A DNA stretch of 64,000 nucleotides, taken from a virus. The translations under genes and the position numbers were made by a program. The stretch lies in the IMG/VR virus record IMGVR_UViG_3300011980_000002, positions 128,001 through 192,000 of that record; one strand, given 5' to 3'. Below the pieces are notes generated by a model. The model was not told where the DNA came from, ran no database searches, and saw only the letters and a list, made by a program, of their open reading frames with translations. Within the stretch, counting starts at the first letter, position 1. Each line of letters starts with the position of its first letter. Of this stretch, positions 2,200 to 54,694 are shown piece after piece.

Positions 2200-2241
2200 A
2201 TATCTTGGTACTTTAGCTTAAAGCTTTTAGTGCCAAGATAT
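2200..2241 (+). terminator. stem-loop downstream of dut
   Basis: ATATCTTGGTAC ... GTGCCAAGATAT 12-bp stem (one G-U) with an inner AGCTT/AAGCT pairing. No clean T-tract follows. Confidence 0.5.
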
Positions 2242-2259
2242 ATAATATTTATTTGGTTA
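2240..2259 (+). promoter_or_regulatory. variant of phage promoter-like core (ATATAATATTTATTTGGTTA)
   Basis: Matches ATATAMTATTW..TTG.TA. Lies 50 nt upstream of the 2309 ATG, directly after the terminator. Confidence 0.3.
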
Positions 2260-3759: not shown

Positions 3760-5160
3760 ATGCTTAAATATTTAAATATGTATAAGAATAAATACAGAGA
3801 CCAATTAAACAAGAAGCTTATGAAAAAAGAAGCTGATGAACCATTGGTTGAGTATATTAAAGATGCGTGGAAATCATTAGAGATAGCTCCTGCTATTAAG
3901 ATAGTTGATTTTAAGTATTCTGAAATAGAGAATGATATCAACATCAATAAGTATATATTCAAGAGAGAGAAGAATAAGAAAAAGAAAGAGAAATTTGATG
4001 TAAAGTTTATTAATGACAGTAGATGTGGTAGTCTTCGTACTACTATAGAAATAACTTTACCTGTTAAAGACCCAGTATCTGGAGAAATCACTATACATAA
4101 GAAAACCTTGAGTAAAGATATTCTTATTCCTATACAAGATGATAGAGGATATTATACTATAAAGGGTAAAAAGTATTATATGATTTATCAATTGGTAGAG
4201 AAATCTACTTATACAGGTAAACAGACTATTACATTGAAATCATTAATGCCTATTGCTATACAAAGAAATAGTACTGTAGTAAAAGGTTTATCTTTTAAAC
4301 ATGAAATGTTAACAGAAGAATTAGAAAAGGATAGTGGAGTAATGACCAAGAATTCCACTATAGCAGAAACTGTTAATGGTGATACTTATAAATTACCAGT
4401 TTATTACATTTACATGTTTAAGAAAGAAACTCCTATATTACCATTCTTTTTAGCAAGAGGAGCAGAATATGCTTTAGACTTTTTACAATTAAATAGAATT
4501 ATCTCATTTGAAGATGGGGAATCATTTCTTAACAGTGAGAAATCTGATAATGAGATATGGTTTGTTATAAGTAATAACAAATGTTATTTAAGAGTAAAAG
4601 ATAGAGAAATCTTTAATAAGTATCAATATTTACAAGCTATGGTAGGAAGTCTATTAGATATAATGAGTAATAGACTTACTAAAGAGCAAATATATGATAC
4701 TACATTATGGGTTAAGAAGTTAGGTGGTGGAAGTCAATCTAATTCTTATAATAAAGGATTGGATATGTTAACTTTCTTCAGTAGACTATTAGATGAGACT
4801 ACTAAGAAGATATTAAGAATAGATGATATTCATAAGAAAGACATTTATTCTTTAATAAGATGGATGATGATGAATTTCAACGAAATACGATTAAAAGACA
4901 ATATGAATTTATATAATAAGAGAATTCGTTGTAATGAGTATATATCATCATTACTTACAATAGAATTCAGTAGGAGACTTAACAGAATAATATCCATGGG
5001 TAATAAAGCTACTATGGATAATTATAAAGAGATATTTAAGTTCCCAGGAGAAATCTTATTACAAAAGTTACATGTATCGGGAGTACTAAGATTTGATGAT
5101 TGTATTAATGATATGAATTTCTTTAGTAAGTTTAAAGTAACTTTCAAAGGACGAATTGAT
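3760..5160 (+). CDS. phage multisubunit RNA polymerase beta-like subunit, N-terminal polypeptide, exon 1
   Basis: RGYYTIKGKKYYMIYQLVEKS resembles the beta motif G-x-F-I-I-N-G-x-E-R-V-I-V-S-Q-L. The C-terminal GVLRFDDCINDMNFFSKFKVTFKGRID aligns to bacterial beta [28 protein letters not shown]. The listed ORF tail 5161-5241 is read-through into the intron. Confidence 0.75.
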
Positions 5161-6131
5161 AAAATGTGGTCCCGAAATATGGTAACATATTGGAAAAACC
5201 GCTTTAACTGCGGGAAAATCTTAATAAACTTTAATTACTAAACTTATATAGTGATATGATAAGTGGCAATGGGTAACTCCAAAGGTATAGTAAAAAGATT
5301 AAAGTTTAAGACAATCCGCAACAAAGATACTTTTATAGAAAAGGATGGTGCATTTTTATAACTATGGAAAATGAAATTATATGGAAAGATATCCTATTAG
5401 ATAGTAAATATTATTACTTTGAAAAGTATGAGTGTAGTAATACAGGTTTAATAAGATATAAAAAGACTAAAAAACTTGTTAAGATATTTGACTCATACAG
5501 ACACAATCGTAAAAATCAACATTGGAAAAGATGCTTTTTATATTTTGACAAGGACCATTTTTATAAAGTGAGTGTACACAGAATAATAGCATTTACATTT
5601 ATACCAAATCAAGATCCAGATATTTATATTGAAGTTAATCATATAGATGGGAATCCTGAAAATAATAATGTTGATAATTTAGAATGGGTTACAAAATCAC
5701 AAAATATGATTCATGCATATAAAAATAACCTAATTAAATTACCAATAGGTGGTAGGCGTAAAGAGGCTATATTTGACGACGATGATGTACGAGCTGTTGT
5801 GTATCTGATGAAACAAGGTATGAAAGCAAAAGAAATATATTTCAATTTATATGAATTAGGATTATCATATAATCCGATTCTAACTAGAGAAAGGATAAAT
5901 TCTCTAATGAAACATATTCGAAAAGGTACACACTGGAAGCATATCTATAAAAAAGTATAATGTTCAACGACTAGGGAAAGACATATTATAATTAATTATA
6001 ATATGAATCGAGTAGGCTCAATAATAGGGCGAAACGTAGATGAAACAAATCGAAACGGGCGGCTCCTTATATTATTAAATATAAGGATGATGATATAGTC
6101 TAAGAAATAGTGAATTGCACATTCACAAGGG
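5161..6131 (+). mobile_element. group I-type intron carrying an HNH homing endonuclease (boundaries approximate, +/- a few nt)
   Basis: Separates two halves of one conserved beta block. A join at T5160/A6132 keeps the frame, leaves exon 1 ending in U and the intron ending in G. The segment is GC-enriched and hairpin-dense: 5176-5191 AATATG-GTAA-CATATT; 5982-6005 perfect 24-nt palindrome; 6065-6086 CCTTATAT/ATATAAGG; 6110-6126 GTGAAT/ATTCAC. Confidence 0.7.
5364..5960 (+). CDS. intron-encoded HNH homing endonuclease (NUMOD4-like N-terminus + HNH_3-type core)
   Basis: WKDI...YYFEKYECSNTGLIRY (NUMOD4-like) and HRIIAFTFIP...IEVNHIDGNPENNNVDNLEWVTKSQNMIHA (H-N-H core). Confidence 0.85.
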   Translation: MENEIIWKDILLDSKYYYFEKYECSNTGLIRYKKTKKLVKIFDSYRHNRKNQHWKRCFLYFDKDHFYKVSVHRIIAFTFIPNQDPDIYIEVNHIDGNPENNNVDNLEWVTKSQNMIHAYKNNLIKLPIGGRRKEAIFDDDDVRAVVYLMKQGMKAKEIYFNLYELGLSYNPILTRERINSLMKHIRKGTHWKHIYKKV

Positions 6132-7263: not shown

Positions 7264-7282
7264 ATATACTATTATTTTGTAC
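7264..7282 (+). promoter_or_regulatory. phage promoter-like core ATATACTATTATTTTGTAC
   Basis: Member of the ATATAMTATTWNNTTGTAA family, 36 nt upstream of the ATG at 7318. Confidence 0.5.
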
Positions 7283-9705: not shown

Positions 9706-9725
9706 ATATACTATTATTATGGTAA
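9706..9725 (+). promoter_or_regulatory. variant promoter-like core ATATACTATTATTATGGTAA
   Basis: Family variant (TGGTAA), 33 nt upstream of the ATG at 9758. Confidence 0.35.
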
Positions 9726-16229: not shown

Positions 16230-16288
16230 TCCGTATTTCATATATATATATACCGATATACTATTTATGTGTAATAAAATAAATATAT
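16230..16288 (+). promoter_or_regulatory. extended (class A) phage promoter, copy 1
   Basis: TCCGTATT - (TA)n - ATATACTATTTATGTGTAA - TAAAATAAATATAT. Near-identical architecture at 18191, 40168 and 53373. Confidence 0.6.
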
Positions 16289-16305
16289 AAAGGAGATTAT
16301 TAATT

Positions 16306-16536: not shown

Positions 16537-16551
16537 AAAAGGAGAAAAAAT

Positions 16552-16772: not shown

Positions 16773-16791
16773 ATATAATATTATTTTGTAA
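16773..16791 (+). promoter_or_regulatory. phage promoter-like core ATATAATATTATTTTGTAA
   Basis: Family member, 34 nt upstream of the ATG at 16825. Shares the ATTATCTATATAAT upstream context with the 35994 copy. Confidence 0.55.
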
Positions 16792-18150: not shown

Positions 18151-18189
18151 AATAAGAGTATGGTTGTATCATACTCTTATTTTTTTTTT
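18151..18189 (+). terminator. Rho-independent terminator
   Basis: AATAAGAGTATG-GTTGTAT-CATACTCTTATT followed by T10. Confidence 0.9.
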
Positions 18190-18190
18190 A

Positions 18191-18252
18191 TCCGTAATAT
18201 GTATATCCATATATATATATATACTATTTATTTGTAAGATAAAAAAATATAT
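18191..18252 (+). promoter_or_regulatory. extended (class A) phage promoter, copy 2
   Basis: TCCGTAAT - (TA)n - ATATACTATTTATTTGTAA - GATAAAAAAATATAT. Confidence 0.6.
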
Positions 18253-18303
18253 TGCCTATATATAGGTAGGGTGGAGATAATATCAAGAGCCCAAGGAGTT
18301 AAA

Positions 18304-20037: not shown

Positions 20038-20057
20038 CTACCATATTAATATTATAT
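20038..20057 (-). promoter_or_regulatory. variant promoter-like core on the minus strand (ATATAATATTAATATGGTAG)
   Basis: Reverse complement of 20038-20057, 30 nt upstream of the minus-strand ATG at 20008. Confidence 0.35.
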
Positions 20058-20124
20058 ATACAATGATTTTATATATTATTAATATGAATTATATTTATAA
20101 TAATGGAAAGGAACATAAAGAAAT

Positions 20125-20895: not shown

Positions 20896-20965
20896 TTAAA
20901 AAACCTTGTAAAAACATTGAAGTAAACTAAATAAAATTAAATAAGAAAGGTGGTATATTGTAATT

Positions 20966-30450: not shown

Positions 30451-32529
30451 ATGAGAATATTAGGTAATTATGAGTATGATGAAAAAGAAGGAATGCTAAT
30501 AGAAACTGATGAAGTACATCCTTCTTTAGATATATCAAAAGAACCGATGATAAATATAATGAGTGATACAGAGTTTCAAAAAAGAGTTGCTACAGTATTT
30601 CAGATGATATCTGATGTATTAGAAAAATCATATGGACCATATGGGTCATCTTCTATTATAGAAAATTATCCTTATCATTATATGACTAAAGATGGATTTT
30701 CTATAATGAAATATATCTCATTATCTAAGAAGTATAATATCATTGATGATGCAATTAGAGGATTAATCGTTGGTCCGTGTAATAAGTTAAACTTCTTAGT
30801 AGGAGATGGAACTACTACTGCTATATTAGCTACTAATAAGATATATCAATCTTATATGGATAAATATAATGATATATTAGACTTTAGAGTTCCGCCTAGA
30901 GATATAATGAAATCATATAATAAGGTAAAAGACTTAATCATTAAAGAGTTAGATAATGAAACAGAAAAAGTTAATGTGGAAAATCATGATGAGATGGTTA
31001 ATATCATTAATAAGATAGCCTATATAACTTCTAATGGTGATGAAGAAATTACTAAATTATTTACCGAGTTATATGATGAATTAGGATATCCTATTATAGA
31101 TGTAGTAAAAGCTCCTGATGGAATTACTAAGAAGAAGATTATAGATGGTTATCATTACGATCTGATACTTAAAGATGCTATTTATGTTAATAGTGATGAT
31201 AGAAGTGCTACTTATAAGAATATGGATGTTATTATGATAGACCATAAAGTAAGTGCAGATATATTCAATCATATATTAATCCCTCTTAATAGTGAGTGTG
31301 CTTTTAATAATAGACATCTTTTAGTAATAGCACCATCTTATGATGATGTAGCTATGCTAAGAATGAGACAGTTATTATTAGACGAGTATAAACAGACTCA
31401 CGATGTTAATATGGTTCTTACTGTAGCGAATATTAATTTTGCTAATAATAGAGATTGTTATGATGATTTAGCAATGCTACTTAATACTACTATATTAACA
31501 AGAACTATGGTAGCAGATATTATCAAATTTACCACAGAAAATGATGGTGTTAAAATATCTAATATAATAGATATCAATAATAGAAATATTAAAGACATAT
31601 CTATTACAGTTAAGCATATTGATGATAATGAATATATTAATGATGATATGATTACTAAGACTATTGATAATGGGGAAATATCAGATGATGTAAGAATACC
31701 ATTATTTGATGAATTTAATATTAGATGCGGATTTGTTGGTAATGTAAGAATTAGCATGGAAGAATCTGATGGTAGTGTTTTTAATGATTTGATATATGAT
31801 AAAGAAATATATAATAGAACCATTAAAAATATCGAGGTAGATTTAGAAGAATCTATTAGAAAAAATGAAAACCTTGGTACTCTGGACTTCCACTCTGATA
31901 GAATAAGAACCAGATTATTTAAACTTAAAATGAAGATTGGTAGTATAGAAGTTGGTGGAGTTTCTCAGTTATCTATCGACATGTTAAAAGACTCCGTTGA
32001 TGATACAGTTAAAGCTACTTCAAGTGCATTTTATAATGGTATTGTTAAAGGATGTAGTGTATCCACATTAAGAGCAATTAATTATGCAAGAAAGTCTGAA
32101 GGATTGAATGATTTAGAAAGATTGATTATTAATTGTATATTTAATGGGTTTAAAAATCTTTATAAGTCATTACTTAATTCAAGATATCATTATATTGGAG
32201 ATAAGGAATTAATACTTACAGAAAATACCACATACCAAGGAATCTATAAAGTTATCGTAGATGATTATAAACTTAATTTAGGCGATGAGTATAATGTACT
32301 CCCATTAATATCAAGAGTTATTGAAGAAGATGGAAACGATATTACATCTATATACGAATTATTAATTTTTATGAGTATGCATAAAAATTCTGCAATAGAT
32401 TTAACTAATGGTGAATTTAATCCAGATGTTATTAATACAGCAAGAACTGATAAAGAAGTACTAATTGCATCAACAGATTTAATTGGATTATTAATAACAG
32501 GTAATCAATTAATCGTTATGGAAAAATAA
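30451..32529 (+). CDS. Cpn60/GroEL-family chaperonin (enlarged, 692 aa)
   Basis: YGPYGSSSIIENYPYHYMTKDGFSIMKYISL matches GroEL LGPKGRNVVL..P.ITKDGVTVAKEIEL. The nucleotide-binding VGDGTTTAILAT is present. IGSIEVGGVSQLSIDMLKDSVDDTVKATSSAF matches GGVAVIKVGA.TE.E.KE...R.EDAL.AT.AA. Confidence 0.85.
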   Translation: MRILGNYEYDEKEGMLIETDEVHPSLDISKEPMINIMSDTEFQKRVATVFQMISDVLEKSYGPYGSSSIIENYPYHYMTKDGFSIMKYISLSKKYNIIDDAIRGLIVGPCNKLNFLVGDGTTTAILATNKIYQSYMDKYNDILDFRVPPRDIMKSYNKVKDLIIKELDNETEKVNVENHDEMVNIINKIAYITSNGDEEITKLFTELYDELGYPIIDVVKAPDGITKKKIIDGYHYDLILKDAIYVNSDDRSATYKNMDVIMIDHKVSADIFNHILIPLNSECAFNNRHLLVIAPSYDDVAMLRMRQLLLDEYKQTHDVNMVLTVANINFANNRDCYDDLAMLLNTTILTRTMVADIIKFTTENDGVKISNIIDINNRNIKDISITVKHIDDNEYINDDMITKTIDNGEISDDVRIPLFDEFNIRCGFVGNVRISMEESDGSVFNDLIYDKEIYNRTIKNIEVDLEESIRKNENLGTLDFHSDRIRTRLFKLKMKIGSIEVGGVSQLSIDMLKDSVDDTVKATSSAFYNGIVKGCSVSTLRAINYARKSEGLNDLERLIINCIFNGFKNLYKSLLNSRYHYIGDKELILTENTTYQGIYKVIVDDYKLNLGDEYNVLPLISRVIEEDGNDITSIYELLIFMSMHKNSAIDLTNGEFNPDVINTARTDKEVLIASTDLIGLLITGNQLIVMEK

Positions 32530-33873: not shown

Positions 33874-33940
33874 TAAATATATATTATTAATTTAGATATG
33901 TAAAATATATTATAGGAAAGGAAGTTATACTAAAAGAATT

Positions 33941-35554
33941 ATGAGTAGTAAAAAAATGAAACCACCAATAGTTTTGTGGAAACCTAAGGAAGAAGAGAAG
34001 ATAATTACATATGATGGTAAAATCTTTATATGTAATTTTGATAAGGTATTATCTCCGGAATTAGTACCTTATAGAAATTTTATGATTAATAAATCCAGTT
34101 ATGAAAAACAACTGGACCAGATAGTAGCTTATATTAATTTCTTCTTAAATTTTTATGATAAAGAACATGAATTAATATTAGGGTATCTTAAGTTAAAATT
34201 TGTTATAGATAAAGAAAGATTATTCCAAGTTGACCCTAGTATGGATAATGAAGAGAAGAATAAAACCATAAATGGATTTATATCATTAATGCATAATATA
34301 CTATTTGAAGATACTTCTGTAGCTAAGAATATTAGTAAATTAGTAGAAGATAATTACATTGATGATATAGAAGGTACTAATAGTAAAGGGGATAAGAAAG
34401 AATATTTAGAGTCATTAGAATTTACCAATGCTCATGTTATGTTAATACTTAAAGTATCGTTTGCAATGAAAATAATAGCCCCAATTATGTTCCATTATTT
34501 TTATATAAATGGAATTAAGTTGGAGAAGAATTCAGATTATATCTATAGATTTTATAAACCATTATTTGGAGATATATTTGAAACACATGGAATTAATCTA
34601 TTTAATAAATTATTTGTGTATGTGAAATCAAGAGTATTTGAATCCGGTAAGATTAATGCTGCAATATTTGATAAGAGAGAGATTATGGGTATTGATATAT
34701 ACTTAGTGCTTAGTATGTTTATTAAGAAAGTCGTAATCTCTGATAATATGGTTAAATATTCATTTCCAGAAACTTGGGATGAGAAAAATCATAAGTATAA
34801 AGAGAATATTGTAGGATTTAATAAGACTATACTTAAATTACAACTTAATTATTTCATTAAAGAAGTACATGGTAAAAATTTAACCGAAGTATCTAATACT
34901 AAGAATACTGAAGGTTTATCAGGTGCTGATAAGATGGAAATGAATATTAAGAAGATGGATGAAGGTATGGGATTATTTGCAGAATTAAATGCAGAGAAAA
35001 CCGTAGAATATATTAAGAGAGTTATAGATATTCCTGTAAGTAAATATGAAGTAGACTATATGATGGATCACTTTAAACCTAATGACATACAGATTAAATT
35101 AATCTATAGCTATTATAGTAATTACTTTGGTAATTATAGAGATACTGCATTAGTTACAGGAAGAAATTTCTATACATTAGCATTATTACTTAAGAAGAAA
35201 TTGTTATTAGATTTTGCTCATGATATAAACAAAGATAATTACAACCTGACCTTACCATATGTACTGACAGGTAATGTTGAAGGTAGGTTAAATTCAAGAA
35301 TAATAAGAAATAATAAATACTTAAGTAAATTAGAAAATGATGACTATTATCAGAAATTACTCAATAATGAATATAAATTATTATTAGAGATAAATCCTGA
35401 TGAAATTAAGAATATCATTAGTACAATGCTTAATTTACAATTCTCATATGTTACTCCAGAGAATCCAGATTTATTAGGAGAAATAATAGAGACAGATGAA
35501 AATAAATTAGGTGCAGAATTATTATACTTTTTATTTCATATGGAAAGGAACTAA
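33941..35554 (+). CDS. hypothetical protein
   Basis: 537-codon ORF with GGAAAGGAA RBS. Confidence 0.7.
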   Translation: MSSKKMKPPIVLWKPKEEEKIITYDGKIFICNFDKVLSPELVPYRNFMINKSSYEKQLDQIVAYINFFLNFYDKEHELILGYLKLKFVIDKERLFQVDPSMDNEEKNKTINGFISLMHNILFEDTSVAKNISKLVEDNYIDDIEGTNSKGDKKEYLESLEFTNAHVMLILKVSFAMKIIAPIMFHYFYINGIKLEKNSDYIYRFYKPLFGDIFETHGINLFNKLFVYVKSRVFESGKINAAIFDKREIMGIDIYLVLSMFIKKVVISDNMVKYSFPETWDEKNHKYKENIVGFNKTILKLQLNYFIKEVHGKNLTEVSNTKNTEGLSGADKMEMNIKKMDEGMGLFAELNAEKTVEYIKRVIDIPVSKYEVDYMMDHFKPNDIQIKLIYSYYSNYFGNYRDTALVTGRNFYTLALLLKKKLLLDFAHDINKDNYNLTLPYVLTGNVEGRLNSRIIRNNKYLSKLENDDYYQKLLNNEYKLLLEINPDEIKNIISTMLNLQFSYVTPENPDLLGEIIETDENKLGAELLYFLFHMERN

Positions 35555-35993: not shown

Positions 35994-36012
35994 ATATAAT
36001 ATTAATTTGTAA
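35994..36012 (+). promoter_or_regulatory. phage promoter-like core ATATAATATTAATTTGTAA
   Basis: Family member, 34 nt upstream of the ATG at 36046. Confidence 0.55.
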
Positions 36013-36045
36013 TAAAATAATATTATTTAAAGGAGAAAAAGAAAT

Positions 36046-36666
36046 ATGAAAAAATTTAATTATGGTTTTGAAGATTTTTCATTCAGTGAGGACAAAGCCA
36101 ATCATCAATCAGAAATAGAATTATTGATTAAAAAGCTTCGTGGGTTTAAATATGTTACAGCATATTTAAACGTTGGTATTAATATGTTATATAGAATAAC
36201 GATACTTGAGGGATATTTGCTAAGATTTCTAATTTTTACAGATAAAGGTGATTTTTACGATAGTATACAATATGCAATAAAAATGTGTAGAGATATAGCT
36301 GAATTACTCGTTAATAATTCAAACGTGTATACCTATCATGGTTTTTATAATAAGAATAAGAGAATAAGCGATATTCTCTTTGAGAAAGTAGAACTTATTG
36401 ATAGAAAAACCATTACAGAAGCACAATCAATATTAGATATAGATGATAGGGATATGAGAGATTTTATCAATAGATTTCAATCGAGAGCTTTCATCTATAT
36501 AGAGAGAATTGATGAGGGTAAACATATTATAGTACTATTGGATTCATTTTATTCATATATGTATTTAATTGAAAATATGGATAAGAAAGAAATTAACAAT
36601 AGTTCATTTTCATTAGAAACAGCCAATTCAATATCAGTAGAAAATGAGGATGAGAATGACGATTAA
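36046..36666 (+). CDS. tandem paralog family member 1 (about 210 aa, acidic SIS..ED.NDD tail)
   Basis: Clear similarity to the next gene: YHGFYNKNKRISDILFEKV vs YYEFYKTHKKISDLLIENC, and C-termini ANSISVENEDENDD vs PNSISIQDEEGNDD. Confidence 0.7.
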   Translation: MKKFNYGFEDFSFSEDKANHQSEIELLIKKLRGFKYVTAYLNVGINMLYRITILEGYLLRFLIFTDKGDFYDSIQYAIKMCRDIAELLVNNSNVYTYHGFYNKNKRISDILFEKVELIDRKTITEAQSILDIDDRDMRDFINRFQSRAFIYIERIDEGKHIIVLLDSFYSYMYLIENMDKKEINNSSFSLETANSISVENEDENDD

Positions 36667-36703
36667 AGTTGAATTATTTTTTAATAAAAATAATATTATT
36701 TAA
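36656..36703 (+). pseudogene. vestigial duplicated 5' end of paralog 3 (15 codons: MTIKVELFFNKNNII)
   Basis: ATGACGATTAAAGTTGAATTATTT parallels ATGATGATTAAAGTTGATTTATTT at 37356, in the same overlap position relative to the upstream stop codon. Confidence 0.4.
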
Positions 36704-38700: not shown

Positions 38701-39753
38701 ATGATAGAGAATGTACAAAACTTCAAAGAAAGATTTATAGAATTATTTATGTTAAGAGATGTCTGGAAACAGAAAGTATCTGATTCACAATATCGGACTA
38801 GATGTGTATATTGTGGAGATAGTAAGAAAGATTTCAATACCGGACATCTCTATATTAAGTGTAATAAAGACGATAGGTCACCTATTGTCTATAATTGTTT
38901 TAAATGCACAGCATCTGGTCTAGCAGATGCTGATTTTTTTAAATTGTTAGATTTAGATGATTTAATCTCAGATAATTCCTTTGATAAATTAAAGAATAAT
39001 TTTAGTAAAGTAAATAATTCTCATAGAGTACAAGATTTTATTTATGAAAATTATTCATGTTTTAACAGTAATAAATATCTTTATAAATTAGACTATATAG
39101 AAAAAAGAATAGGAGTTAAATTTAATAATGAAATGGTTAATAAATGTAAAGTAATCACATCTATTAAGGAATTTCTTAAATATAATAAAATTAAAGATAT
39201 TACTGTGGATAAATATATATTGGATATATTAGACAGAGATTATATTGGATTTTTATCATATGGGAATACACATATATTCTTAAGAGATATAACTAATACT
39301 CATAAATTATCGTGGGTTAAATATAAGATATATAATAGTAATACTTTAGTAGTTTATAATATCAGTAATAGTATTAATGTATTAACCACAGAAGATATTA
39401 CTATAAATATAAGTGAAGGTATAATAGATATTTTATCAATTGCTTATAATCTTAATAATAATAGAGATAATGTAATTAATTTTGCTAATGGTAGTAAATC
39501 TTATTTTAACTTAATCAATCATATAATTAAATTAGGTTTAGTAGGAAATAATGTAACTTTAAATATCTATAGTGATAATGATAAGAAATTCAATAATGAT
39601 AGTAATTATTATGATACTACCATTAATTACTATAAAAAGGTATTTAGGTATTACAAAATACTATTTAAAGAAATTAATGTATATTATAACATACTGAGAA
39701 AAGATTGTGGTGAACGTATAGAAAATATATCTTTAAGTAAGCATAAAATATAA
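38701..39753 (+). CDS. DNA primase (zinc ribbon + Toprim)
   Basis: CVYCGDSKKDFNTGHLYIKCNKDDRSPIVYNCFKCTASG (CxxC...CxxC, T7 gp4/DnaG-type). Toprim glutamate INISEGIIDILS and DxD IYSDNDK. Confidence 0.75.
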   Translation: MIENVQNFKERFIELFMLRDVWKQKVSDSQYRTRCVYCGDSKKDFNTGHLYIKCNKDDRSPIVYNCFKCTASGLADADFFKLLDLDDLISDNSFDKLKNNFSKVNNSHRVQDFIYENYSCFNSNKYLYKLDYIEKRIGVKFNNEMVNKCKVITSIKEFLKYNKIKDITVDKYILDILDRDYIGFLSYGNTHIFLRDITNTHKLSWVKYKIYNSNTLVVYNISNSINVLTTEDITINISEGIIDILSIAYNLNNNRDNVINFANGSKSYFNLINHIIKLGLVGNNVTLNIYSDNDKKFNNDSNYYDTTINYYKKVFRYYKILFKEINVYYNILRKDCGERIENISLSKHKI

Positions 39754-40120: not shown

Positions 40121-40162
40121 GATAATAGAGTATATAGAAATCAATCTATATACTCTATTATC
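40121..40162 (+). terminator. stem-loop terminator
   Basis: 17-bp stem GATAATAGAGTATATAG / CTATATACTCTATTATC. Weak T-tract. Confidence 0.65.
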
Positions 40163-40167
40163 TATGG

Positions 40168-40226
40168 TCCGTATTTCATATATATATATAGTAATATACT
40201 ATTTATATGTAATAAAATAAATATAT
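40168..40226 (+). promoter_or_regulatory. extended (class A) phage promoter, copy 3
   Basis: TCCGTATT - (TA)n - ATATACTATTTATATGTAA - TAAAATAAATATAT. Almost identical to copy 1. Confidence 0.6.
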
Positions 40227-40242
40227 TAAAGGAGATATCATC

Positions 40243-40488
40243 ATGATGTCATTAGCAGAGTTAAATAGAATAACCAGTAAGTTTGATTTAGAGGCTTGTA
40301 TGGCTATAGCCTCTGGAAGAAAAGAAACTATTGATTCTATCAAGGAAGAAATCAATACTCAACTTATATCATTTAATAACATGAAATCTGAAGCTGTTGA
40401 AGCTACAGATATTCACAACTTAGAATCTGCAATTTATAAATTGCAGATTACATTAAAGGATATAGAAGGCTTTGGAATGTTATTCTAA
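40243..40488 (+). CDS. small hypothetical protein (81 aa)
   Basis: AAAGGAG RBS 8 nt upstream. Single gene of a class A cassette. Confidence 0.65.
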   Translation: MMSLAELNRITSKFDLEACMAIASGRKETIDSIKEEINTQLISFNNMKSEAVEATDIHNLESAIYKLQITLKDIEGFGMLF

Positions 40489-40515
40489 GCCTTCTATATA
40501 TATATTAATAAAAAT

Positions 40516-40548
40516 AAATCTTAATTAATTTTAGGATTTATTTTTTTT
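40516..40548. terminator. weak AT-rich bidirectional stem-loop between convergent genes
   Basis: AAATAAATC ... GATTTATTT stem followed by T8. Confidence 0.4.
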
Positions 40549-43351
40549 ATATTAATAAATTATCTAAATCCAGTTTTATTGTTACTACTGTATTATCATG
40601 GAATTTCTTCATGTTAAGGTTTGTTAGAGTAGTTGCAATTTTAGATGATGATAATCCAACATTCTCTATTCCTAACTTATAGAATAATTGTCCCATACAT
40701 CTACTACATAATTTTTTTCCAATACACATCATTGGAGATCTCATTTTAACAGTTTTACCCATATAAGAATCCATATTTTTTTCATCTAATAGTATATGCT
40801 TACCATTACTACCAATGATATATCTATACATTACAGATTTAGCTGTTCCTTTATTAATCTCATATGGTATATATCCTTTAGTACCACAATCACTTTCTGG
40901 GTCAGGATTTAACATCTCTGTTTGCATTGCTGCAAGTAACTCTTTTGATAGATATCCTGTATCAGCAGTAGATACCGATTTAGAATATGCACCAATAACA
41001 TTAGAGTTAGCTGAAGCAGGTATATCTTTCTTAGCCATTCCATCCATTAGCGAATTAGTAATTATATCATAATTACCGGTTGCTGGATTCTTAACGACTC
41101 CTCTATACATAGCAATATTCTTTAAGTTATTCTTAACAGAACCTCTTGCTCCTGAGTCATATAAGTCCATACCAACATCACCTTTAAAGATTTCTTTAGT
41201 TTTATTTATCAATGCTTTCTCTATCTCTTCAGATATTTCAACATCACCTTTCTCTAATCTATCTTTATATTTCTCTACTAATTCATTTTTTAACTTAGAT
41301 ACTTCAGGTGGAGTTTTAATTGTTGGTAATGTATAAGAAGATGTTACAGTAGCATGCATCTTTAATCCAAACCAATCTCTATAGTCTATCCATCTATACA
41401 TATCAGTTACGGTAATTCTATCATCCATTAAAGCTTTAGCTATAGTATCTTCTATTTTACCTTGTTTACCCTCAGTTACAGGTTCATTAATATATCCAAT
41501 TATATCAGCGTAGTTATTTAACCATCTCTTATATAAACCGGTATTAAGTACATATCTACCTACAGTAGTTTCTATAGCTGTTTTAGTAGGGGATTTAGCT
41601 GCCGGTAATGTAAATTTATCGGTAGGTTTAAACTTAGGAATACCATTAAGTTTTCTTGTGTTATCATCTTTAAGATTTGCAAACATCATATTCATAATAT
41701 CGGCATTAAAATAATCTGGTGATTTTTCTAATAACCAATCTATATCTGTTTTAGAAGCTGTTTTATCATCAGATGAAGGATTCTTAGTTAATGAATAGAA
41801 AGTCTGTACTGGTTCACTACCAACAACTTTCATATTCTTCCCATCCATATTAAGAATATACTTCTTACTATTAACATACTTTTCCAATTCAGCATTTGCT
41901 TCTTGTGTCCATAATAACTTAATTGTCATTTGATCACCATCATAGTCTCCACCGAGTCCTAATAGATAAGATGGTGAGAACTGTTGTGAGTCTATAAACA
42001 TAGTACCAATATGGTCCATATCCGCATCAAAGTCTACAACAGGATACCATTTGTAAATAGTATTATTAGTTCTCATTATCTGTGTTTTAGTAGTAGATAT
42101 AACTCTTACTTTACACATGAAAGAACCATATTGGTCGTTAAGAGGATATCTTGTACACATGGCATACTTATCTCTTACTGAATCCTCACAAGCCATATAT
42201 AATAAATCCGTTACAGTCATATATCTGTTTGATATTGTAGAATCTTCTTGATTTACATTGTTAAGAGTACTTCCAACAAATGTCATATACATCTTATTAG
42301 GACCTTCTACTGGTATTTCTATCTTATTAAATCTCGACTCTGGATTCTTAATATAATTATTAATCATTCCATCTATATACTTATCATCAAAATATGCTTC
42401 CGGAGATATTAACTTTACAGGTTCAAATTCACCTTTACTATTAATAAAAGATTTACTGTCTTTATTCTCAAATACCTCTTTCTTAAAGAAATTTTTTACC
42501 CAGTTAAGAACAAATGGATATGCTAATACACATATCTGTGATATAGGTAATCCACAATAACCTAGACTTATCATTTCGTCATCCGGATTATTACTATGGT
42601 AATTTTTAGATGTGATGACAGTTCTTGTAGAGTTACATACGGATTTACCCATTAGGTATTTTCTTATCATACCATTTTTCTTTTCTATCTTAGTCTTAAA
42701 ATATTCATATATTTCCATAATAGAGTTTTGAATTATTTTATTACTAGCATGGAATTGGAAATTAAATCCATCTTCTTCTTTTACAGTGGATACATGTCTT
42801 ATAATTCCGCTATATAAAGTATTTAACTCATTAGTAGTTCCACCACCTTTACCATCAGAGATAACATCTCTATATGATACCGGTATTACTACTAATTTAT
42901 TCATGAATAGTATTTTCTTAGGTATTTTTAAGAAGTCTAATCTTTCCTGTCTTATTCCAATCGTAACATCATTATCTTCGTCAGTATCCCATTTAATCTT
43001 TTCCCAATTATTATATAAAAACTCTATACCAGTATCGGCATCCATATCTTCACTTGGGACTAATTTACCACTTTTATCTATCTTATAATAAGCTGAACCA
43101 TCTATAATCTTATCTACATTTCTGAATATAGATTTAACTGCTTTATATGCATTTGGGTGAAAAAAGTGATTATGTAAATCTATATAAGCCATTCTATTTT
43201 TTCTATCATATAATGATATACCAAATATCTCATTAGATAATAATCCATCACTGTGAGGAATTCCACCTCTTTGGAAAATTACCGGATTAGATACTTCTTG
43301 TAATCTATTAATTTTAACAAACTCATCTATATCTAATAAATCTAGTTTCAT
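40547..43351 (-). CDS. phage multisubunit RNAP beta-prime-like subunit (regions A through G, contains the catalytic DxDGD)
   Basis: N-terminus GLLSNEIFG...RMAYIDL..FHP. LMGKSVCNSTRTVITS (beta-prime LLGKRVDYSGRSVI). TRYPLNDQYGSF (NRAPTLH). Catalytic GGDYDGDQMTIKL (NADFDGDQM). DSGARGSVKN, TADTGYLSKELL and CSRCMG...KKFH. Confidence 0.9.
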   Translation of the reverse strand: MKLDLLDIDEFVKINRLQEVSNPVIFQRGGIPHSDGLLSNEIFGISLYDRKNRMAYIDLHNHFFHPNAYKAVKSIFRNVDKIIDGSAYYKIDKSGKLVPSEDMDADTGIEFLYNNWEKIKWDTDEDNDVTIGIRQERLDFLKIPKKILFMNKLVVIPVSYRDVISDGKGGGTTNELNTLYSGIIRHVSTVKEEDGFNFQFHASNKIIQNSIMEIYEYFKTKIEKKNGMIRKYLMGKSVCNSTRTVITSKNYHSNNPDDEMISLGYCGLPISQICVLAYPFVLNWVKNFFKKEVFENKDSKSFINSKGEFEPVKLISPEAYFDDKYIDGMINNYIKNPESRFNKIEIPVEGPNKMYMTFVGSTLNNVNQEDSTISNRYMTVTDLLYMACEDSVRDKYAMCTRYPLNDQYGSFMCKVRVISTTKTQIMRTNNTIYKWYPVVDFDADMDHIGTMFIDSQQFSPSYLLGLGGDYDGDQMTIKLLWTQEANAELEKYVNSKKYILNMDGKNMKVVGSEPVQTFYSLTKNPSSDDKTASKTDIDWLLEKSPDYFNADIMNMMFANLKDDNTRKLNGIPKFKPTDKFTLPAAKSPTKTAIETTVGRYVLNTGLYKRWLNNYADIIGYINEPVTEGKQGKIEDTIAKALMDDRITVTDMYRWIDYRDWFGLKMHATVTSSYTLPTIKTPPEVSKLKNELVEKYKDRLEKGDVEISEEIEKALINKTKEIFKGDVGMDLYDSGARGSVKNNLKNIAMYRGVVKNPATGNYDIITNSLMDGMAKKDIPASANSNVIGAYSKSVSTADTGYLSKELLAAMQTEMLNPDPESDCGTKGYIPYEINKGTAKSVMYRYIIGSNGKHILLDEKNMDSYMGKTVKMRSPMMCIGKKLCSRCMGQLFYKLGIENVGLSSSKIATTLTNLNMKKFHDNTVVTIKLDLDNLLI

Positions 43352-43409
43352 TTAATTTAGCCTGATTACTCCTTTCTAATTTTCTATTAAAAATCTATCT
43401 AAAGGTTAA

Positions 43410-43451
43410 GTCAATGTTTTTAGCCCTAAAAACCCTATGAAAAACATTGAC
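43410..43451. promoter_or_regulatory. 12-bp perfect inverted repeat carrying back-to-back TTGAC boxes in a divergent intergenic region
   Basis: GTCAATGTTTTT-N18-AAAAACATTGAC. The minus strand reads TTGACT-N17-TTTAAT ahead of the beta-prime gene. The plus strand reads TTGACC-N17-AAAAAT ahead of 43497. Confidence 0.4.
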
Positions 43452-43496
43452 CTAAATTAAAACTAAGATAAAAATATTATACAGAAAGGATTTATT

Positions 43497-46681: not shown

Positions 46682-46819
46682 CAGTTTTGTTTATGTCCTT
46701 TCCATTTATATTTTTTCTAATATATGAGATTTATATATTTGTGTTCTGATATAACTAATAGTAATTAATTGATATTAGCACAAAATAATAAAATCTATAT
46801 ATAGAAAGGAACTAAGATA

Positions 46820-48627: not shown

Positions 48628-48646
48628 ATATACTATTAACTTGTAA
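48628..48646 (+). promoter_or_regulatory. phage promoter-like core ATATACTATTAACTTGTAA
   Basis: Family member, 40 nt upstream of the ATG at 48686. Confidence 0.5.
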
Positions 48647-50112: not shown

Positions 50113-52173
50113 ATGGAACCTATCATAAAGCATATTTCCACAGAAGAAGAAATGAAGAAGCATATAAAACCATTATATGTAATTCATGATTATATGGATA
50201 ATGATGAATCATACATAGATTTTCAAGAGTCTATGTATGATTTGATTAAAGGATGTTTCGAATATCATAAACTGAGGACTTATCCGATTAATTTTAAATT
50301 CTATGAAAGTGATACAAAAGTTCATACATTAGAACTTAGATTTTTCGTAGTAAATTTATTTTATTGGTATCCTCTTATTAATTTAAACAAGTTTAAAGAT
50401 GTTATAGATGAGAGTTTTATCATTACTAAATCTACCGATGTAATTCATATTAATAAGTGGATTGATAATTTAATGATAACCTTATCTGATTATCATGTTA
50501 AACCTGTTGTAATAAACAGATACATTTCTACAGCCTTATATAATATAAGAAGAGTCAATGCAGACTTTTCTGAAATTATGGGACTAAACTTTGATTTAGT
50601 AACTATATTTGAAATGTATTGTAATAATAAGACGATACATGATTTGATGGAACTAAATATAGATGAGGAAATGCAACCTAATGAAATAGAGGAAATCTTA
50701 TTAGACGCAGAAGAGAAATTAATTAATGAATTAATGTCTATTAAGAATAATCCTATCGGGACAATATTAAGAAGTGGAACTGGTATTAAACATAAGCAAG
50801 CTGTAGAGTTCTTTATATCTAAAGGACTAATGCCTACAATAGATGGAACTACTATACCATTACCAATAAAGAATTCTACTTTAATTGGTGGTATTAGTAA
50901 AGCTTCTGATTTATATATAGATGGTACAGGTTCACGAAAGTCATTAATAATGTCTCATACGGTAATGGGTAATGCCGGTCATTTTGGTAAGATGTTAGCC
51001 GAATTAGCCAGAACTTTATCATTATCTAAAAGAGTTGCAGATTGTGGTACTAAGCATAGAGTTAAATACTTTGTAGAAAGTAAGAAATTCTTAAAGAAAT
51101 TAGATAATAGATATTTCTCATTAACTAAGAACGGGGAATTGGAATTACTTAAGGCTAATAAGATGGAATATCTTATTAATAAAGAAATTTATGTAAGATC
51201 CCCAGCTACTTGTTGTTTAGAGAATGAAGTATGTCCAAGATGTATGGGCAAAATAGCTACATTTAATTTCGATATTGCGGCAGGATTTTGTGCTTTCTTA
51301 ATTAAAGAAGTTACTAAAGTATTAGAGCAGAATATATTATCTACTAAGCATCTACTTACTACAACTTCAGAGAAGATTGAGTTTAATGAAACTTTCCATA
51401 AGTATTTCACATTATCATCTAATGAGGTTAATATTAATCTTAATGATAATGAAGAAATTGAATCTATTGAAGATTGGGTAATGATATTAAATAAAGATAC
51501 TATAGAGAAAGAAGATGATATGGATATGGAAGAAGGTCTTAATACATATATATCTGATGGTAAATTTACTGTTAAGAATATAAAGACTAATCAGACATTT
51601 GAAATATCAGAACTTGGAAAGAAGAATCTTTATTTATCAGATGAATTAATAGAATTATTTAAATCTAGTAGTACAATTAAATTCTCAGACTTGGATGAAA
51701 GTGCTCCACTATTTATTATTCAGATTTCTAATAATGAATTAACAAGACCATTGTATGAAATTATGGATATAATCAATACTAAGAAGAAAACTGACTTTGA
51801 AAGAACTATAGATAATATGGCACAAAGATTCGTTCAGTTATTAATAGAGTCTAAGATTGCTGCTCCTGCGGTATCTGCTGAAGTTATTATTAACAGATTA
51901 CTTAGACTTCCTGATGATATGTTTAATAGACCAGATTTCAATTCTGTCAAAATGCCAGATTATACTATTTCAACAAGTATGGCTTCTTTAGAGAGGAATA
52001 ACTCAGCTAGTGTTGGTTTAGCTTTTCAGTTCTTAAATAGGCAGTTAACTAACTTAGAGTCTTTCACTAAAAAGAGTTCACCATCATACCTCGACCCGTT
52101 ATTCAGAGAAGAGGTCTCAACTAAAAAGGTGAAGAAATTTATGAAATATATCAATAAAAAAGATAGGAAATAA
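50113..52173 (+). CDS. phage multisubunit RNAP beta-prime-like subunit, C-terminal polypeptide (regions E/F to H)
   Basis: RSGTGIKHKQAVEFFISKGLM (SGARGS..Q..QL.GMRGLM). DGTGSRKSLIMSHTVMGNAGHFGKMLAELA ([27 protein letters not shown]). CPRCMGKIA...STKHLLTT (C..CYG...TFH). Confidence 0.85.
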   Translation: MEPIIKHISTEEEMKKHIKPLYVIHDYMDNDESYIDFQESMYDLIKGCFEYHKLRTYPINFKFYESDTKVHTLELRFFVVNLFYWYPLINLNKFKDVIDESFIITKSTDVIHINKWIDNLMITLSDYHVKPVVINRYISTALYNIRRVNADFSEIMGLNFDLVTIFEMYCNNKTIHDLMELNIDEEMQPNEIEEILLDAEEKLINELMSIKNNPIGTILRSGTGIKHKQAVEFFISKGLMPTIDGTTIPLPIKNSTLIGGISKASDLYIDGTGSRKSLIMSHTVMGNAGHFGKMLAELARTLSLSKRVADCGTKHRVKYFVESKKFLKKLDNRYFSLTKNGELELLKANKMEYLINKEIYVRSPATCCLENEVCPRCMGKIATFNFDIAAGFCAFLIKEVTKVLEQNILSTKHLLTTTSEKIEFNETFHKYFTLSSNEVNINLNDNEEIESIEDWVMILNKDTIEKEDDMDMEEGLNTYISDGKFTVKNIKTNQTFEISELGKKNLYLSDELIELFKSSSTIKFSDLDESAPLFIIQISNNELTRPLYEIMDIINTKKKTDFERTIDNMAQRFVQLLIESKIAAPAVSAEVIINRLLRLPDDMFNRPDFNSVKMPDYTISTSMASLERNNSASVGLAFQFLNRQLTNLESFTKKSSPSYLDPLFREEVSTKKVKKFMKYINKKDRK

Positions 52174-53372: not shown

Positions 53373-53424
53373 TCCGTAATTTCTCTTAATATATATATAC
53401 TATTTACTTGTAAAATAAATATAT
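53373..53424 (+). promoter_or_regulatory. extended (class A) phage promoter, copy 4
   Basis: TCCGTAAT - N - (TA)n - ATATACTATTTACTTGTAA - AATAAATATAT. Confidence 0.6.
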
Positions 53425-53635: not shown

Positions 53636-53684
53636 AAAATAAAACCCTTATAGATATAATTTCTATAAGGGTTTTATTTTTTTA
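53634..53684. terminator. bidirectional terminator shared with the convergent endolysin gene
   Basis: AAAACCCTTATAG ... CTATAAGGGTTTT stem flanked by A-run and T-run. Confidence 0.85.
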
Positions 53685-54548: not shown

Positions 54549-54694
54549 TACAATATAAATTTCCTTTCATTTTGTTTGATAATTTTTCTATTACTTATGT
54601 AAGTGTGATGAATCCCTTAAGAAAATTGACCCAAAAAACATATACCTAAGCTTATGCTATATAAAATAAAGAAAGGGGGATATAAGAATATTTT

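Follow-up and report, generated by a model that had tools for sequence, protein, structure and literature searches.

A repeated intergenic box in an AR9/PBS1-related jumbo phage is probably an early-gene promoter read by the virion RNA polymerase

A 19-nt box recurs between the genes of an uncultivated jumbo phage related to AR9/PBS1, and our analysis indicates that it is most probably an early-gene promoter read by the virion RNA polymerase (vRNAP) of this phage. Because the box matches the experimentally mapped early promoter of AR9 nearly base for base, it adds one more member to a known class of signals. The analysis covered a 64-kb stretch of DNA, hereafter the window, from a genome of about 210 kb.

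The phage carries genes of two RNA polymerases

The named phages that matched best were Fusobacterium, Bacillus and Staphylococcus jumbo phages, and the G+C content of the lineage is 26%. No close match at the DNA level was found among 50,697 phage records. Run SRR1781914 holds an identical 9.2-kb contig. IMGVR_UViG_3300008575_000010 is a relative with 210 kb of sequence. The best beta' matches suggest low-GC anaerobes such as Fusobacterium as candidate hosts. No tRNAs were found in the window, and a supposedly gene-poor, higher-GC region at 55–64 kb proved to be an artefact of the ORF list; it consists of one giant ORF that runs past the window end.

Both polymerase sets of AR9 are represented in the window, by homologs of three non-virion RNA polymerase (nvRNAP) proteins, g105, g154 and gp226, and by a fused vRNAP beta' gene:

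3760..5241, + strand: homolog of AR9 g105 (nvRNAP beta, N-terminal part)
33941..35554, + strand: homolog of AR9 gp226 (nvRNAP promoter-specificity subunit); tblastn against AR9 194765-195748, E = 1e-16
40547..43351, − strand: fused virion-RNAP beta' homolog (AR9 g145 N-half plus g264 C-half); no early box upstream; preceded by AACA-TTGACT-TA
50113..52173, + strand: homolog of AR9 g154 (nvRNAP beta', C-terminal part)

An insertion carrying an HNH endonuclease follows the beta-N homolog at its 3' end. No vRNAP beta subunit was seen within the 64-kb window. The fused virion-RNAP beta' (40547..43351), 934 aa long, is the presumed reader of the box.

The box is a genuine motif confined to intergenic sites

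The repeated box is a genuine motif in the window. Its architecture is ATATA-N-TATT-(5N)-G(TAA), and the window holds 12 strong and two weaker copies, all of them intergenic. An earlier sequence-only reading had listed nine sites, every one of which was present with exactly the coordinates and sequence given; its looser variants at 2240 and 9706 were also real, as was the minus-strand variant, which runs from 20057 to 20039 and was misplaced at 20038. The copies are listed below with scores from a position-weight (PWM) scan and with orthologs in REL1, a close relative at ~81% nucleotide identity:

2240..2258, + strand: strong box ATATAATATTTATTTGGTT; PWM 18.4; predicted start G2255, 54 nt before ATG 2309; heads the operon leading to the nvRNAP beta-N homolog (3760), with a terminator-like hairpin between the box and that homolog; a −24 kcal/mol hairpin abuts the box; REL1 ortholog at 8501
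7264..7282, + strand: strong box ATATACTATTATTTTGTAC; predicted start G7279, 39 nt before ATG 7318; REL1 ortholog 12578
9706..9724, + strand: strong box ATATACTATTATTATGGTA; predicted start G9721, 37 nt before ATG 9758; REL1 ortholog 15012, ATATAATATTTATTTGTAA
12795..12813, + strand: strong box ATATAATATTAAATTGTAA; predicted start G12810, 42 nt before ATG 12852; REL1 ortholog 18105, with T at position 6
16256..16274, + strand: strong box ATATACTATTTATGTGTAA; predicted start G16271, 35 nt before ATG 16306; heads a cassette of two small genes that is missing from the relative; terminator hairpin and CCGTATT upstream
16773..16791, + strand: strong box ATATAATATTATTTTGTAA; predicted start G16788, 37 nt before ATG 16825; terminator at 16714-16748; REL1 ortholog 20886
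18219..18237, + strand: strong box ATATACTATTTATTTGTAA; predicted start G18234, 70-nt leader, ATG 18304; terminator at 18151-18181; paralogous promoter-plus-leader in REL1 at 3788(−)
20039..20057, − strand: strong box ATATAATATTAATATGGTA; PWM 20.0; predicted start G20042, 34 nt before ATG 20008, which is likely the true ATG of its gene (Shine-Dalgarno ggagaaaaaagaaatATG); REL1 ortholog 24359(−)
20071..20089, + strand: weaker box ATATATTATTAATATGAAT; PWM 11.7; T at position 6; 39 nt before ATG 20125; diverges from box 20039(−); REL1 ortholog 24373, ATATACTATTATTATG
33879..33897, + strand: weaker box ATATATTATTAATTTAGAT; T at position 6 and A, not G, at position 16; lies within AAATATATATTAT, the exact AR9 13-mer; directly upstream of the gp226 homolog, between homologs of AR9 g227 and g226; orthologous place in REL1, ATATATTATTAAGTTG
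35994..36012, + strand: strong box ATATAATATTAATTTGTAA, at the coordinates originally reported; predicted start G36009, 37 nt before ATG 36046; terminator hairpin upstream; REL1 ortholog 40252
40194..40212, + strand: strong box ATATACTATTTATATGTAA; predicted start G40209, 34 nt before ATG 40243; the box and its 81-aa gene are missing from the relative
48628..48646, + strand: strong box ATATACTATTAACTTGTAA; predicted start G48643, 43 nt before ATG 48686; heads an operon with the nvRNAP beta'-C homolog (50113-52173); REL1 ortholog 51907
53395..53413, + strand: strong box ATATACTATTTACTTGTAA; predicted start G53410, 37 nt before ATG 53447; terminator hairpin and CCGTAAT upstream

When up to two mismatches were allowed, the pattern gave 11 matches in the window, all on the + strand, against 2.31 expected, and none of 100 shuffles reached 11. 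The PWM scan of the window separated two clear groups: 12 sites scored at least 17.8, and the next best scored 11.7. The minus-strand box 20039..20057 was not part of the PWM training set. As the sequence-only reading had claimed, the strong sites lie between genes, and all 12 share the orientation of the gene that follows. Measured from the 3' end of the box, the ATG lies 30–39 nt away at ten of the 12, in line with the spacing first described; it lies 50 nt away at 2240 and 66 nt away, rather than the 67 nt given before, at 18219. That most boxes directly follow a terminator was roughly right, since a long stable hairpin (−21 to −27 kcal/mol) stands upstream of 7/12 strong boxes and most of these seven have a T-run.

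Dinucleotide shuffles, with intergenic and coding sequence shuffled separately, showed 6–40-fold over-representation of the motif between genes relative to composition-matched shuffles:

ATATAMTATT: intergenic, 12 observed vs shuffle mean 1.9; coding, 4 observed vs 8.0
ATAMTATTNNNNTG: intergenic, 11 observed vs shuffle mean 0.26; coding, 1 observed vs 2.4
TATANTAT-6N-G: intergenic, 13 observed vs shuffle mean 2.3; coding, 5 observed vs 16.2

Equal frequency inside coding regions had been set beforehand as the refuting outcome, and the shuffles placed the enrichment between genes and not within them. Coding depletion was clear only for the loosest pattern, TATANTAT-6N-G; the counts of the other patterns were low but within ~1.5 sd. 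Upstream flanks of the 12 strong sites share 36% pairwise identity, compared with 34% expected from composition. The sole exception is the pair 16256/40194, near-duplicates that form a duplicated module. Since the flanks are otherwise unrelated, at least 11 copies are independent.

The core of the box is conserved in relatives

Ten orthologous intergenic regions were compared with REL1. Positions 1–5 and 7–10 were identical in all ten pairs, and T15 and G16 in nine; position 6 was identical in two, i.e., it varies freely, and the flanks were 49–62% identical. The footprint was anchored on motif matches in both genomes, so the core conservation is somewhat inflated. In loci from 19 more distant relatives, TATA[ATC]TAT-6N-G occurred 45 times between genes against 6.3 expected (~7-fold) and 28 times within genes against 30.5 expected. 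De novo 9-mer counts in these distant relatives were noisy, yet they pointed to ATATATTAT; the targeted pattern test was cleaner.

A box that recurs in this way could also be something other than a promoter, such as a site for a DNA-binding regulator or for recombination, or the edge of a mobile cassette that happens to lie between genes. Three gene-content differences from the close relative (16294-16747, 36051-36673 and 40161-40543) are indeed bounded by copies of the promoter/leader module, and one module pair is a recent duplicate. However, most sites occupy conserved orthologous places away from indel borders. A promoter also fits the way in which the boxes strictly face the gene downstream, keep a fixed distance from its start codon and stand just past terminators, as well as their match to the experimentally mapped AR9 promoter. 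No hairpin formed by the box as DNA was found when nine sites were folded (MFE −2.1 kcal/mol or weaker; z-scores −1.35 to +0.85), which excludes most structure-specific recombination sites as well as N4-type hairpin promoters; an N4-type virion RNAP promoter was accordingly rejected. A site that serves as a recombination substrate can still be a promoter, and the former role would not replace the latter. We therefore consider a non-promoter role extremely improbable.

The box matches the mapped early promoter of AR9

Early promoters of AR9 were mapped experimentally as AAATATATATTAT-(6N)-G+1; their activity does not need protein synthesis, and they were assigned to vRNAP (Lavysh et al. 2017, PMC5312081). 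Across 40 early-promoter sites in the AR9 genome the consensus is AAATATATATTAT-nAnnnT-G, and that of the window is nnnnATATAnTAT-TwwyTT-G. Alignment of ATATAnTAT with the AR9 core ATATATTAT at the 3' end gave identity at eight of nine positions. In all 12 strong sites a G, preceded by T, lies exactly 6 nt past ATATAnTAT. Both phages have a 6-nt spacer ending in T(−1) and followed by G(+1), a start that is mapped in AR9 and predicted here, and by homology to AR9 we infer that the invariant G is the start of transcription. They also share an AT-rich conserved block centred near −10 and a similar placement: the sites are intergenic, often past terminators, and precede small genes of unknown function and nvRNAP subunit genes. 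The annotated AR9 early promoter between g227 and g226 even has a positional counterpart here, box 33879.

The two phages differ in several details. The base at −10 is T in AR9, whereas it is A or C in the window (T in two weak sites and in some relatives). The upstream AAAT of AR9 is not conserved in the window sites, and the T at −6, invariant in the window, differs from AR9. The predicted transcripts here usually begin GTAA, compared with G then A in AR9. The DNA polymerase gene has an early promoter in AR9, but that of the window (25608) has no box, which counts against the early-promoter reading. The proteins are only ~25–37% identical to those of AR9, and vRNAP beta' is encoded by one fused gene here and by two genes in AR9. 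Promoter function itself was mapped in AR9 and is deduced here by homology; in the literature consulted, we found no demonstration of purified AR9 vRNAP directly recognising the early promoter.

According to a review of RNAP-encoding jumbo phages, early operons are preceded by a conserved AT-rich element that is ~10 nt long and centred near −10 (PMC7598289). The box, which is AT-rich over ~10 nt, over-represented and co-oriented upstream of operons, fits this rule. In the Staphylococcus jumbo phage MarsHill, which belongs to the AR9-like phage group, an early promoter TATATTAT was predicted upstream of 29 genes (bioRxiv 10.1101/2020.12.14.422802); its AT-rich core is of the same kind and was likewise found through over-representation upstream of genes, although its base at −10 is T and it too is a prediction only. 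Phages phiKZ and phiR1-37 follow the same logic, in that a virion-packaged multisubunit RNAP goes together with an AT-rich element near −10, and transcription starts 6 nt past that element. The sequences vary from phage to phage, and these two are more distant.

A host-type promoter accounts poorly for the box

The core of the box also invites a host-type explanation, in which a sigma-70/sigma-A holoenzyme would use TATAMT as a −10 element, without a −35, for phage early genes. Positions 2–7 read TATAAT or TATACT, so the sequence-only statement that the motif does not resemble a −35/−10 promoter stands for the missing −35 and TG extension but not for the core, which contains a −10-like hexamer. 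The −8 position of the sigma-70 −10 hexamer is weakly conserved, and the freely variable position 6 of the box coincides with it. Site 12795 further pairs, by chance, with a TTGGGA-18-TATAAT match.

However, the sites have no conserved −35 or TG extension (information at most 0.73 bit at each position from −34 to −5), and sigma-70-type matches in the window stood at chance level (172 vs 165.7 expected). The sigma-70 reading was rejected on these grounds. The box moreover has invariant bases outside the hexamer (A1, A8, T9, T10, T15 and G16), with a G 8 nt past it; a sigma-70 promoter would not be expected to have extra invariant bases at A1, A8–T10 and T15–G16. In AR9, the same motif directs transcription that does not require new protein synthesis and that its authors assigned to the virion RNAP (PMC5312081). 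RNAP-encoding jumbo phages are insensitive to rifampicin (PMC13282480), which also speaks against the host enzyme, and this phage encodes two polymerases of its own. Recognition by the host polymerase is thus very improbable in our estimate. A further candidate, CCGTAWT, lies 21–27 nt upstream of 4/12 boxes and recurs in the relative, with an overall count of 11 vs 5.7; because this count exceeds chance only mildly and the spacing is variable, the motif was set aside as a −35-like element.

The genes behind the boxes point to the virion polymerase

Boxes precede nvRNAP subunit homologs at three places: upstream of beta-N (2240, with the intervening hairpin as a caveat), directly before the gp226 homolog (33879) and upstream of beta'-C (48628). 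The first genes behind ten boxes (nine strong, one weak) had no Pfam match, which is typical of early genes. By analogy with AR9, the genes headed by boxes are probably expressed early. In the window, no box was found before the vRNAP beta' gene, the endolysin, the virion protein or the giant ORF.

In the AR9 late promoter, which nvRNAP reads, the coding strand carries AACA 6N upstream of TA/G (PMC5312081, PMC7598289). AACA-(6N)-TA occurs 41–55 nt ahead of the starts of the vRNAP beta' gene and the giant ORF, and likewise ahead of those of 43497, 20966 and 45410-46681(−); four of the late-signal sites are kept in the relative. The relative lacks a conserved counterpart of another AACA site, at 15521, which probably matches by chance.

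These signals bear on whether nvRNAP itself could read the box, as a middle or late promoter or as a promoter of continuously expressed genes. The window does encode nvRNAP subunits and the gp226 homolog, and the box contains TTGT, while AR9 nvRNAP recognises UUGU read 3'->5' on the template strand, which corresponds to AACA on the coding strand. Because the TTGT of the box is a coding-strand sequence that overlaps the predicted start, however, both its orientation and its position are wrong for nvRNAP. The early box contains no AACA, the coding-strand element of AR9 nvRNAP promoters, and matches the AR9 early consensus and not the late one; a separate AACA-(6N)-TA signal, kept in the relative, stands before late-type genes. 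Finally, with nvRNAP subunit genes behind the box, something other than nvRNAP must read the box first. Recognition by nvRNAP is consequently very improbable as well. The original proposal, that the box is an element for one of the sigma-less RNAPs of the phage, is supported and can be narrowed to the virion RNAP, given that both polymerases are encoded, that the box matches AR9 and that a host-type signal is missing. Homology to AR9 identifies the virion enzyme as the probable reading polymerase.

A model for early transcription

In the model that we propose, a multisubunit virion RNAP injected with the DNA would recognise the AT-rich block ATATA-N-TATT, which spans −15 to −6 if the invariant G is +1. 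The enzyme would initiate at this G, after a 6-nt spacer ending in T, and its transcripts would usually start GUAA. The resulting mRNA leaders would be ~35–43 nt long and carry a strong Shine-Dalgarno sequence. Early transcripts would span small genes without a known function as well as genes for subunits of the non-virion RNAP, the second polymerase, which would then read the AACA-(6N)-TA late promoters before virion, lysis and virion-RNAP genes.

The 70-nt leader behind box 18219 contains a K-turn-like 5'UTR hairpin with G.A pairs at 18269-18292, a less expected feature than a promoter. At gathering scores Rfam gave no match anywhere in the window, and at permissive E-values it gave none around 18180-18340 or 54500-64000. 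No L7Ae-type protein that might bind such a leader was found among ten small window proteins, and a literature search for natural phage K-turn operators returned synthetic-biology papers only.

Promoter modules and polymerase specificity

A broader joint reading is possible, and we put it forward tentatively: the promoter, the upstream terminator hairpin and the conserved ~35-nt leader would form a portable module that recombines small early genes, and the vRNAP specificity of the lineage would have shifted. In the first part of this proposal, recombination between such modules would add or remove small early genes and move them around among these jumbo phages, in a PeSL-like manner but based on a virion-RNAP promoter. 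PeSL cassettes of T4-type phages are reportedly promoter-early stem-loop modules in which the host sigma-70 polymerase reads the promoter. Here, as in PeSLs, a terminator hairpin, an early promoter and a small ORF would act as a module that marks gene gain and loss between close relatives. The two differ in that host sigma-70 reads the PeSL promoters, and the evidence here consists of three indels against one relative, a non-systematic comparison. In the second part, the unconstrained −10 position (A, C or T), together with the strongly kept T(−6) and the GTAA start, would mark a shift in specificity of the fused-beta' vRNAP. Such a shift, if true, could be used to find the part of the enzyme that reads the promoter.

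Implications

Knowledge of jumbo-phage transcription is unchanged by the finding. If the box is the early promoter, it provides an operon and timing map for an uncultivated AR9-like lineage, in which early and late genes would be separable by sequence alone. It also offers natural variation for the question of how a sigma-less vRNAP recognises its promoter, in the form of the variable core base, the invariant T(−6), the T(−1)G(+1) pair and the fused beta'. Such variation can guide mutagenesis and the analysis of co-variation between promoter and enzyme.

RNA polymerase genes of the phage

The G+C content was 25–30% over most of the window, and no close relative was found among 50,697 phage records. 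By protein comparison, the phage falls among the AR9/PBS1-like jumbo phages. The best matches of the DNA polymerase and the RNA polymerase (RNAP) β′ were in Fusobacterium phages JD-Fnp, Bacillus phages AR9/PBS1, and Staphylococcus jumbo phages, at ~25–37% identity. Genes were assigned from a tblastn run locally on the complete AR9 genome and from the AR9 annotation, as listed here for the non-virion RNAP (nvRNAP), the virion RNAP (vRNAP), and other genes.

270–1718, homolog of AR9 g095, ligase
3760–5241, homolog of AR9 g105, nvRNAP β-N
25608–27722, homolog of AR9 g152, DNA polymerase
30451–32529, homolog of AR9 g228, GroEL
33941–35554, homolog of AR9 g226, nvRNAP promoter-specificity subunit
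38701–39753, homolog of AR9 g225, primase
40547–43351 (−), 934-aa fused homolog of AR9 g145 and g264, the two vRNAP β′ halves
50113–52173, homolog of AR9 g154, nvRNAP β′-C

The sequence-only reading had assumed that the phage encodes its own sigma-less RNAPs. The tblastn homologs of both AR9 enzymes, together with the syntenic block g228-g227-g226-g225, show that this premise was correct. The vRNAP β′ is a single gene in the window, whereas g145 and g264 lie far apart in AR9 and are intron-interrupted; full-length fused homologs were also present in Fusobacterium phages JD-Fnp and many IMG/VR contigs. Separately, a full-length PPK1 polyphosphate kinase with all four Pfam domains was found at 10809–12791 (+), an unusual auxiliary gene for a phage.

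The box is concentrated between genes

All nine 19-nt box sequences quoted in the sequence-only reading were present at their coordinates. A PWM scan of the window separated two groups, with 12 sites at 17.8–26.5 and all else at ≤11.7. The strong group comprised the nine quoted sites, those at 2240 and 9706, which had been described as looser variants, and the minus-strand site 20057→20039, which was left out of PWM training; two weaker copies occurred at 20071 and 33879. With ≤2 mismatches allowed, the degenerate 19-mer matched 11 times, always on the + strand, against 2.3 expected from dinucleotide shuffles, and 0 of 100 shuffles reached this number. These counts cover 64 kb of a ~210 kb genome.

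All 12 strong sites were intergenic, as had been claimed, and oriented toward a start codon. The gap of 30–40 nt to the ATG held in 10 of them (30–39 nt), but not at 2240 (50 nt) or 18219 (66 nt). An upstream terminator, proposed for most boxes, was seen as a long stable hairpin before 7 of the 12, with a T-run in most of these.

Shuffles were made separately for intergenic and coding DNA to obtain the expected counts.

Observed and expected counts of three forms of the box
ATATAMTATT: intergenic 12 observed, 1.9 expected; coding 4 observed, 8.0 expected
ATAMTATTNNNNTG: intergenic 11 observed, 0.26 expected; coding 1 observed, 2.4 expected
TATANTAT-6N-G: intergenic 13 observed, 2.3 expected; coding 5 observed, 16.2 expected

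Equal frequency in genes, with composition corrected for, had been named as an outcome that would speak against the motif; this was not the case, and the box was strongly enriched between genes, without enrichment inside them. Clear depletion in coding DNA was confined to the loosest pattern, TATANTAT-6N-G, and is what would be expected if stray copies were harmful. Apart from the duplicated module 16256/40194, the flanks of the 12 sites were alike only at the level of composition, and the copies are thus essentially independent.

The box matches the early promoter of AR9

In AR9, dRNA-seq and primer extension located the early promoters and gave the consensus AAATATATATTAT-(6N)-G+1; these promoters are active without new protein synthesis and have been attributed to the injected virion enzyme (PMC5312081). 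We re-derived the AR9 consensus from 40 genomic sites as AAATATATATTAT-nAnnnT-G-A, and the window motif, aligned at the 3′ end, reads nnnnATATAnTAT-TwwyTT-G-TAA. Eight of nine core bases are identical between the two, and a spacer of equal length leads to the same terminal T and then the same G. The sequence in a Staphylococcus jumbo phage belonging to the same group is TATATTAT. If the invariant G is +1, the ATATAnTATT block would occupy −15 to −6, which fits how vRNAP promoters are generally described: a highly conserved, AT-rich stretch of ~10 nt with its centre near −10 (PMC7598289).

These comparisons support the box as a probable AR9-type early promoter of the virion RNAP, which narrows the original proposal of a recognition element for one of the phage's own polymerases; we infer from homology where transcription starts, that it is early, and which enzyme reads the box. 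A -10-like hexamer within the core could instead point to a host sigma-70 promoter. However, no -35 or TG element was found upstream of the box, sigma-70-type matches were not in excess in the window, and the invariant bases extend outside the hexamer, so that this origin is very unlikely. As the box forms no hairpin, an N4-type hairpin promoter was excluded.

Conservation of the box in relatives

REL1, a 56.6 kb stretch of a close relative merged from three loci of IMG/VR contig IMGVR_UViG_3300008575_000010, is syntenic with the window at ~81% nucleotide identity. Ten orthologous intergenic regions with a box in both genomes were compared, anchored on the motif matches in both. Positions 1–5 and 7–10 were identical in 10/10 pairs and T15 and G16 in 9/10; position 6 was identical in 2/10, switching among A, C, and T. 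The TAA after G16 was ~60% identical and the box flanks 49–62%. Position 6 is therefore unconstrained, and the remaining core is strongly constrained.

At a greater distance, in loci of 19 relatives with a β′ ~45–48% identical, there were 45 intergenic occurrences of TATA[A/T/C]TAT-6N-G (6.3 expected) and 28 in genes (30.5 expected). In many of these relatives the core takes the AR9 form TATATTAT, and C at the variable core position was seen mainly in the window's own lineage.

The promoter core also occurs in REL1 as a tandem duplicate with a 15-nt offset, ATATAATATTTATCT-ATATAATATTTAAATG, at 20871–20901 (~1002–1032 of the fetched locus L001). Another short element, CCGTAWT, was seen in the window at 16231, 18192, 40169, and 53374 (+), 21–27 nt upstream of 4/12 boxes with unfixed spacing and just past the terminator T-run, and at two promoters in REL1.

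Genes with and without the box

A virion-RNAP early promoter would require that the nvRNAP genes be transcribed from the box and that late genes not be. The β′-C homolog lies inside the operon headed by box 48628, and the gp226 homolog directly behind the weak box 33879, which is embedded in a perfect AR9 13-mer, AAATATATATTAT. AR9 has an annotated early promoter between g227 and g226, and the weak box lies between their homologs; REL1 has kept ATATATTATTAAGTTG at this place. Box 2240 heads the operon of the β-N homolog, but with a hairpin in between. The first genes behind 10 boxes (nine strong, one weak) had no Pfam match, and early genes usually have none. Of the AR9 early genes, 76% have no known function (PMC5312081).

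The box was absent before the vRNAP β′ gene in the PWM scan of the window, and likewise before the endolysin gene at 53682–54548 (−), the virion structural protein gene at 24676–25449 (−), and a giant ORF (54695 to the window end). No recognisable box precedes the DNA polymerase gene, whereas its AR9 counterpart has an early promoter. The giant ORF, 54695–64000 (+), exceeds 3,100 codons and runs off the window end, and so was missing from the ORF list and left the region seemingly gene-poor; its region has a G+C content of 34–37% against ~26% elsewhere, and its likely product is a giant virion or tail protein.

Five box-less genes carry the AR9 late (nvRNAP) consensus, AACA-(6N)-TA, 41–55 nt before the start codon: vRNAP β′, its divergent neighbour 43497, 20966, 45410–46681 (−), and the giant ORF.

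20913–20924 (+), AACA-(6N)-TA site
43407–43418 (−), AACA-(6N)-TA site
43443–43454 (+), AACA-(6N)-TA site
46734–46745 (−), AACA-(6N)-TA site
54637–54648 (+), AACA-(6N)-TA site

Sites 43407 and 43443, between divergent genes, are part of an inverted repeat. REL1 conserves four of the five sites, one of them amid otherwise diverged sequence. As the motif is low in information, we treat this pattern as supporting evidence, not as a finding. Recognition of the box by the nvRNAP is unlikely, because the box stands in front of the nvRNAP genes themselves and there is a late-type signal distinct from it.

Ribosome-binding sites (RBSs) at start codons in the window (e.g., 36030–36048 and 33922–33943) were of two kinds: AAAGGAGA(A)AAAGAAAT-ATG, seen mainly where a gene is the first after an early box, and GGAAAGGAA, seen at many other genes.

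Insertions and gene-content differences

Three gene-content differences from REL1 (16294–16747, 36051–36673, and 40161–40543) are bounded by promoter/leader copies, and the small early genes within them are absent from the 81%-identical REL1. For example, the leader AATAAAATAATATTATTTAAAGGAGAAwAAGAAAT occurs at both 36013 and 36684. That the box is no promoter, and marks instead a regulator-binding site or operator, a recombination site, or the boundary of a mobile cassette, is extremely improbable, as a pure recombination site or operator leaves the orientation, the spacing, and the match to mapped promoters unexplained. With the box as a putative early promoter, the three differences suggest that early genes are gained or lost via recombination between promoter/leader modules.

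A 970-nt insertion at 5150–6120, at the end of the nvRNAP β-N homolog, is also absent from REL1. Its ORF 5364–5960 encodes an HNH homing endonuclease resembling g271 of AR9. The insertion looks intron-like; it matched neither group I nor group II introns in Rfam, and its pieces 5195–5326 and 5962–6103 have many repeats in two relatives' loci (L004 and L005).

A hairpin in the leader behind box 18219

The long leader between box 18219 and the ATG at 18304 contains a 22-nt core, GGTGGAGATA-NN-ATCAAGAGCC, at 18270–18291 (+). The exact pattern has 28 copies in IMG/VR, in large phage contigs only and 1–3 per contig, always 9–18 nt from an ATG with an SD directly behind; the downstream proteins, compared in four lineages, are mutually unrelated. 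Of 23 distinct copies, 21 have paired closing bases, in six pair types, indicating covariation, and the next bases outward are unpaired. This pairing defines a 24-nt stem, internal loop, and stem, N-GGTGGAGATA-NN-ATCAAGAGCC-N′, at 18269–18292 (+), which is also present in the fetched loci L038–L065. By our reading, the strands GGU-GGA-GA... and ...GA-GCC resemble the kink-turn consensus, with its C-stem, 3-nt bulge, and tandem G.A pairs. The hairpin is absent from the AR9 genome and has no Rfam match. Adjoining the ribosome-binding site, it would most likely act as a translational operator.

Implications

As an AR9-type early promoter, the box would not surprise specialists. It is useful for annotation, and it provides natural variation for studying how the vRNAP reads its promoter.
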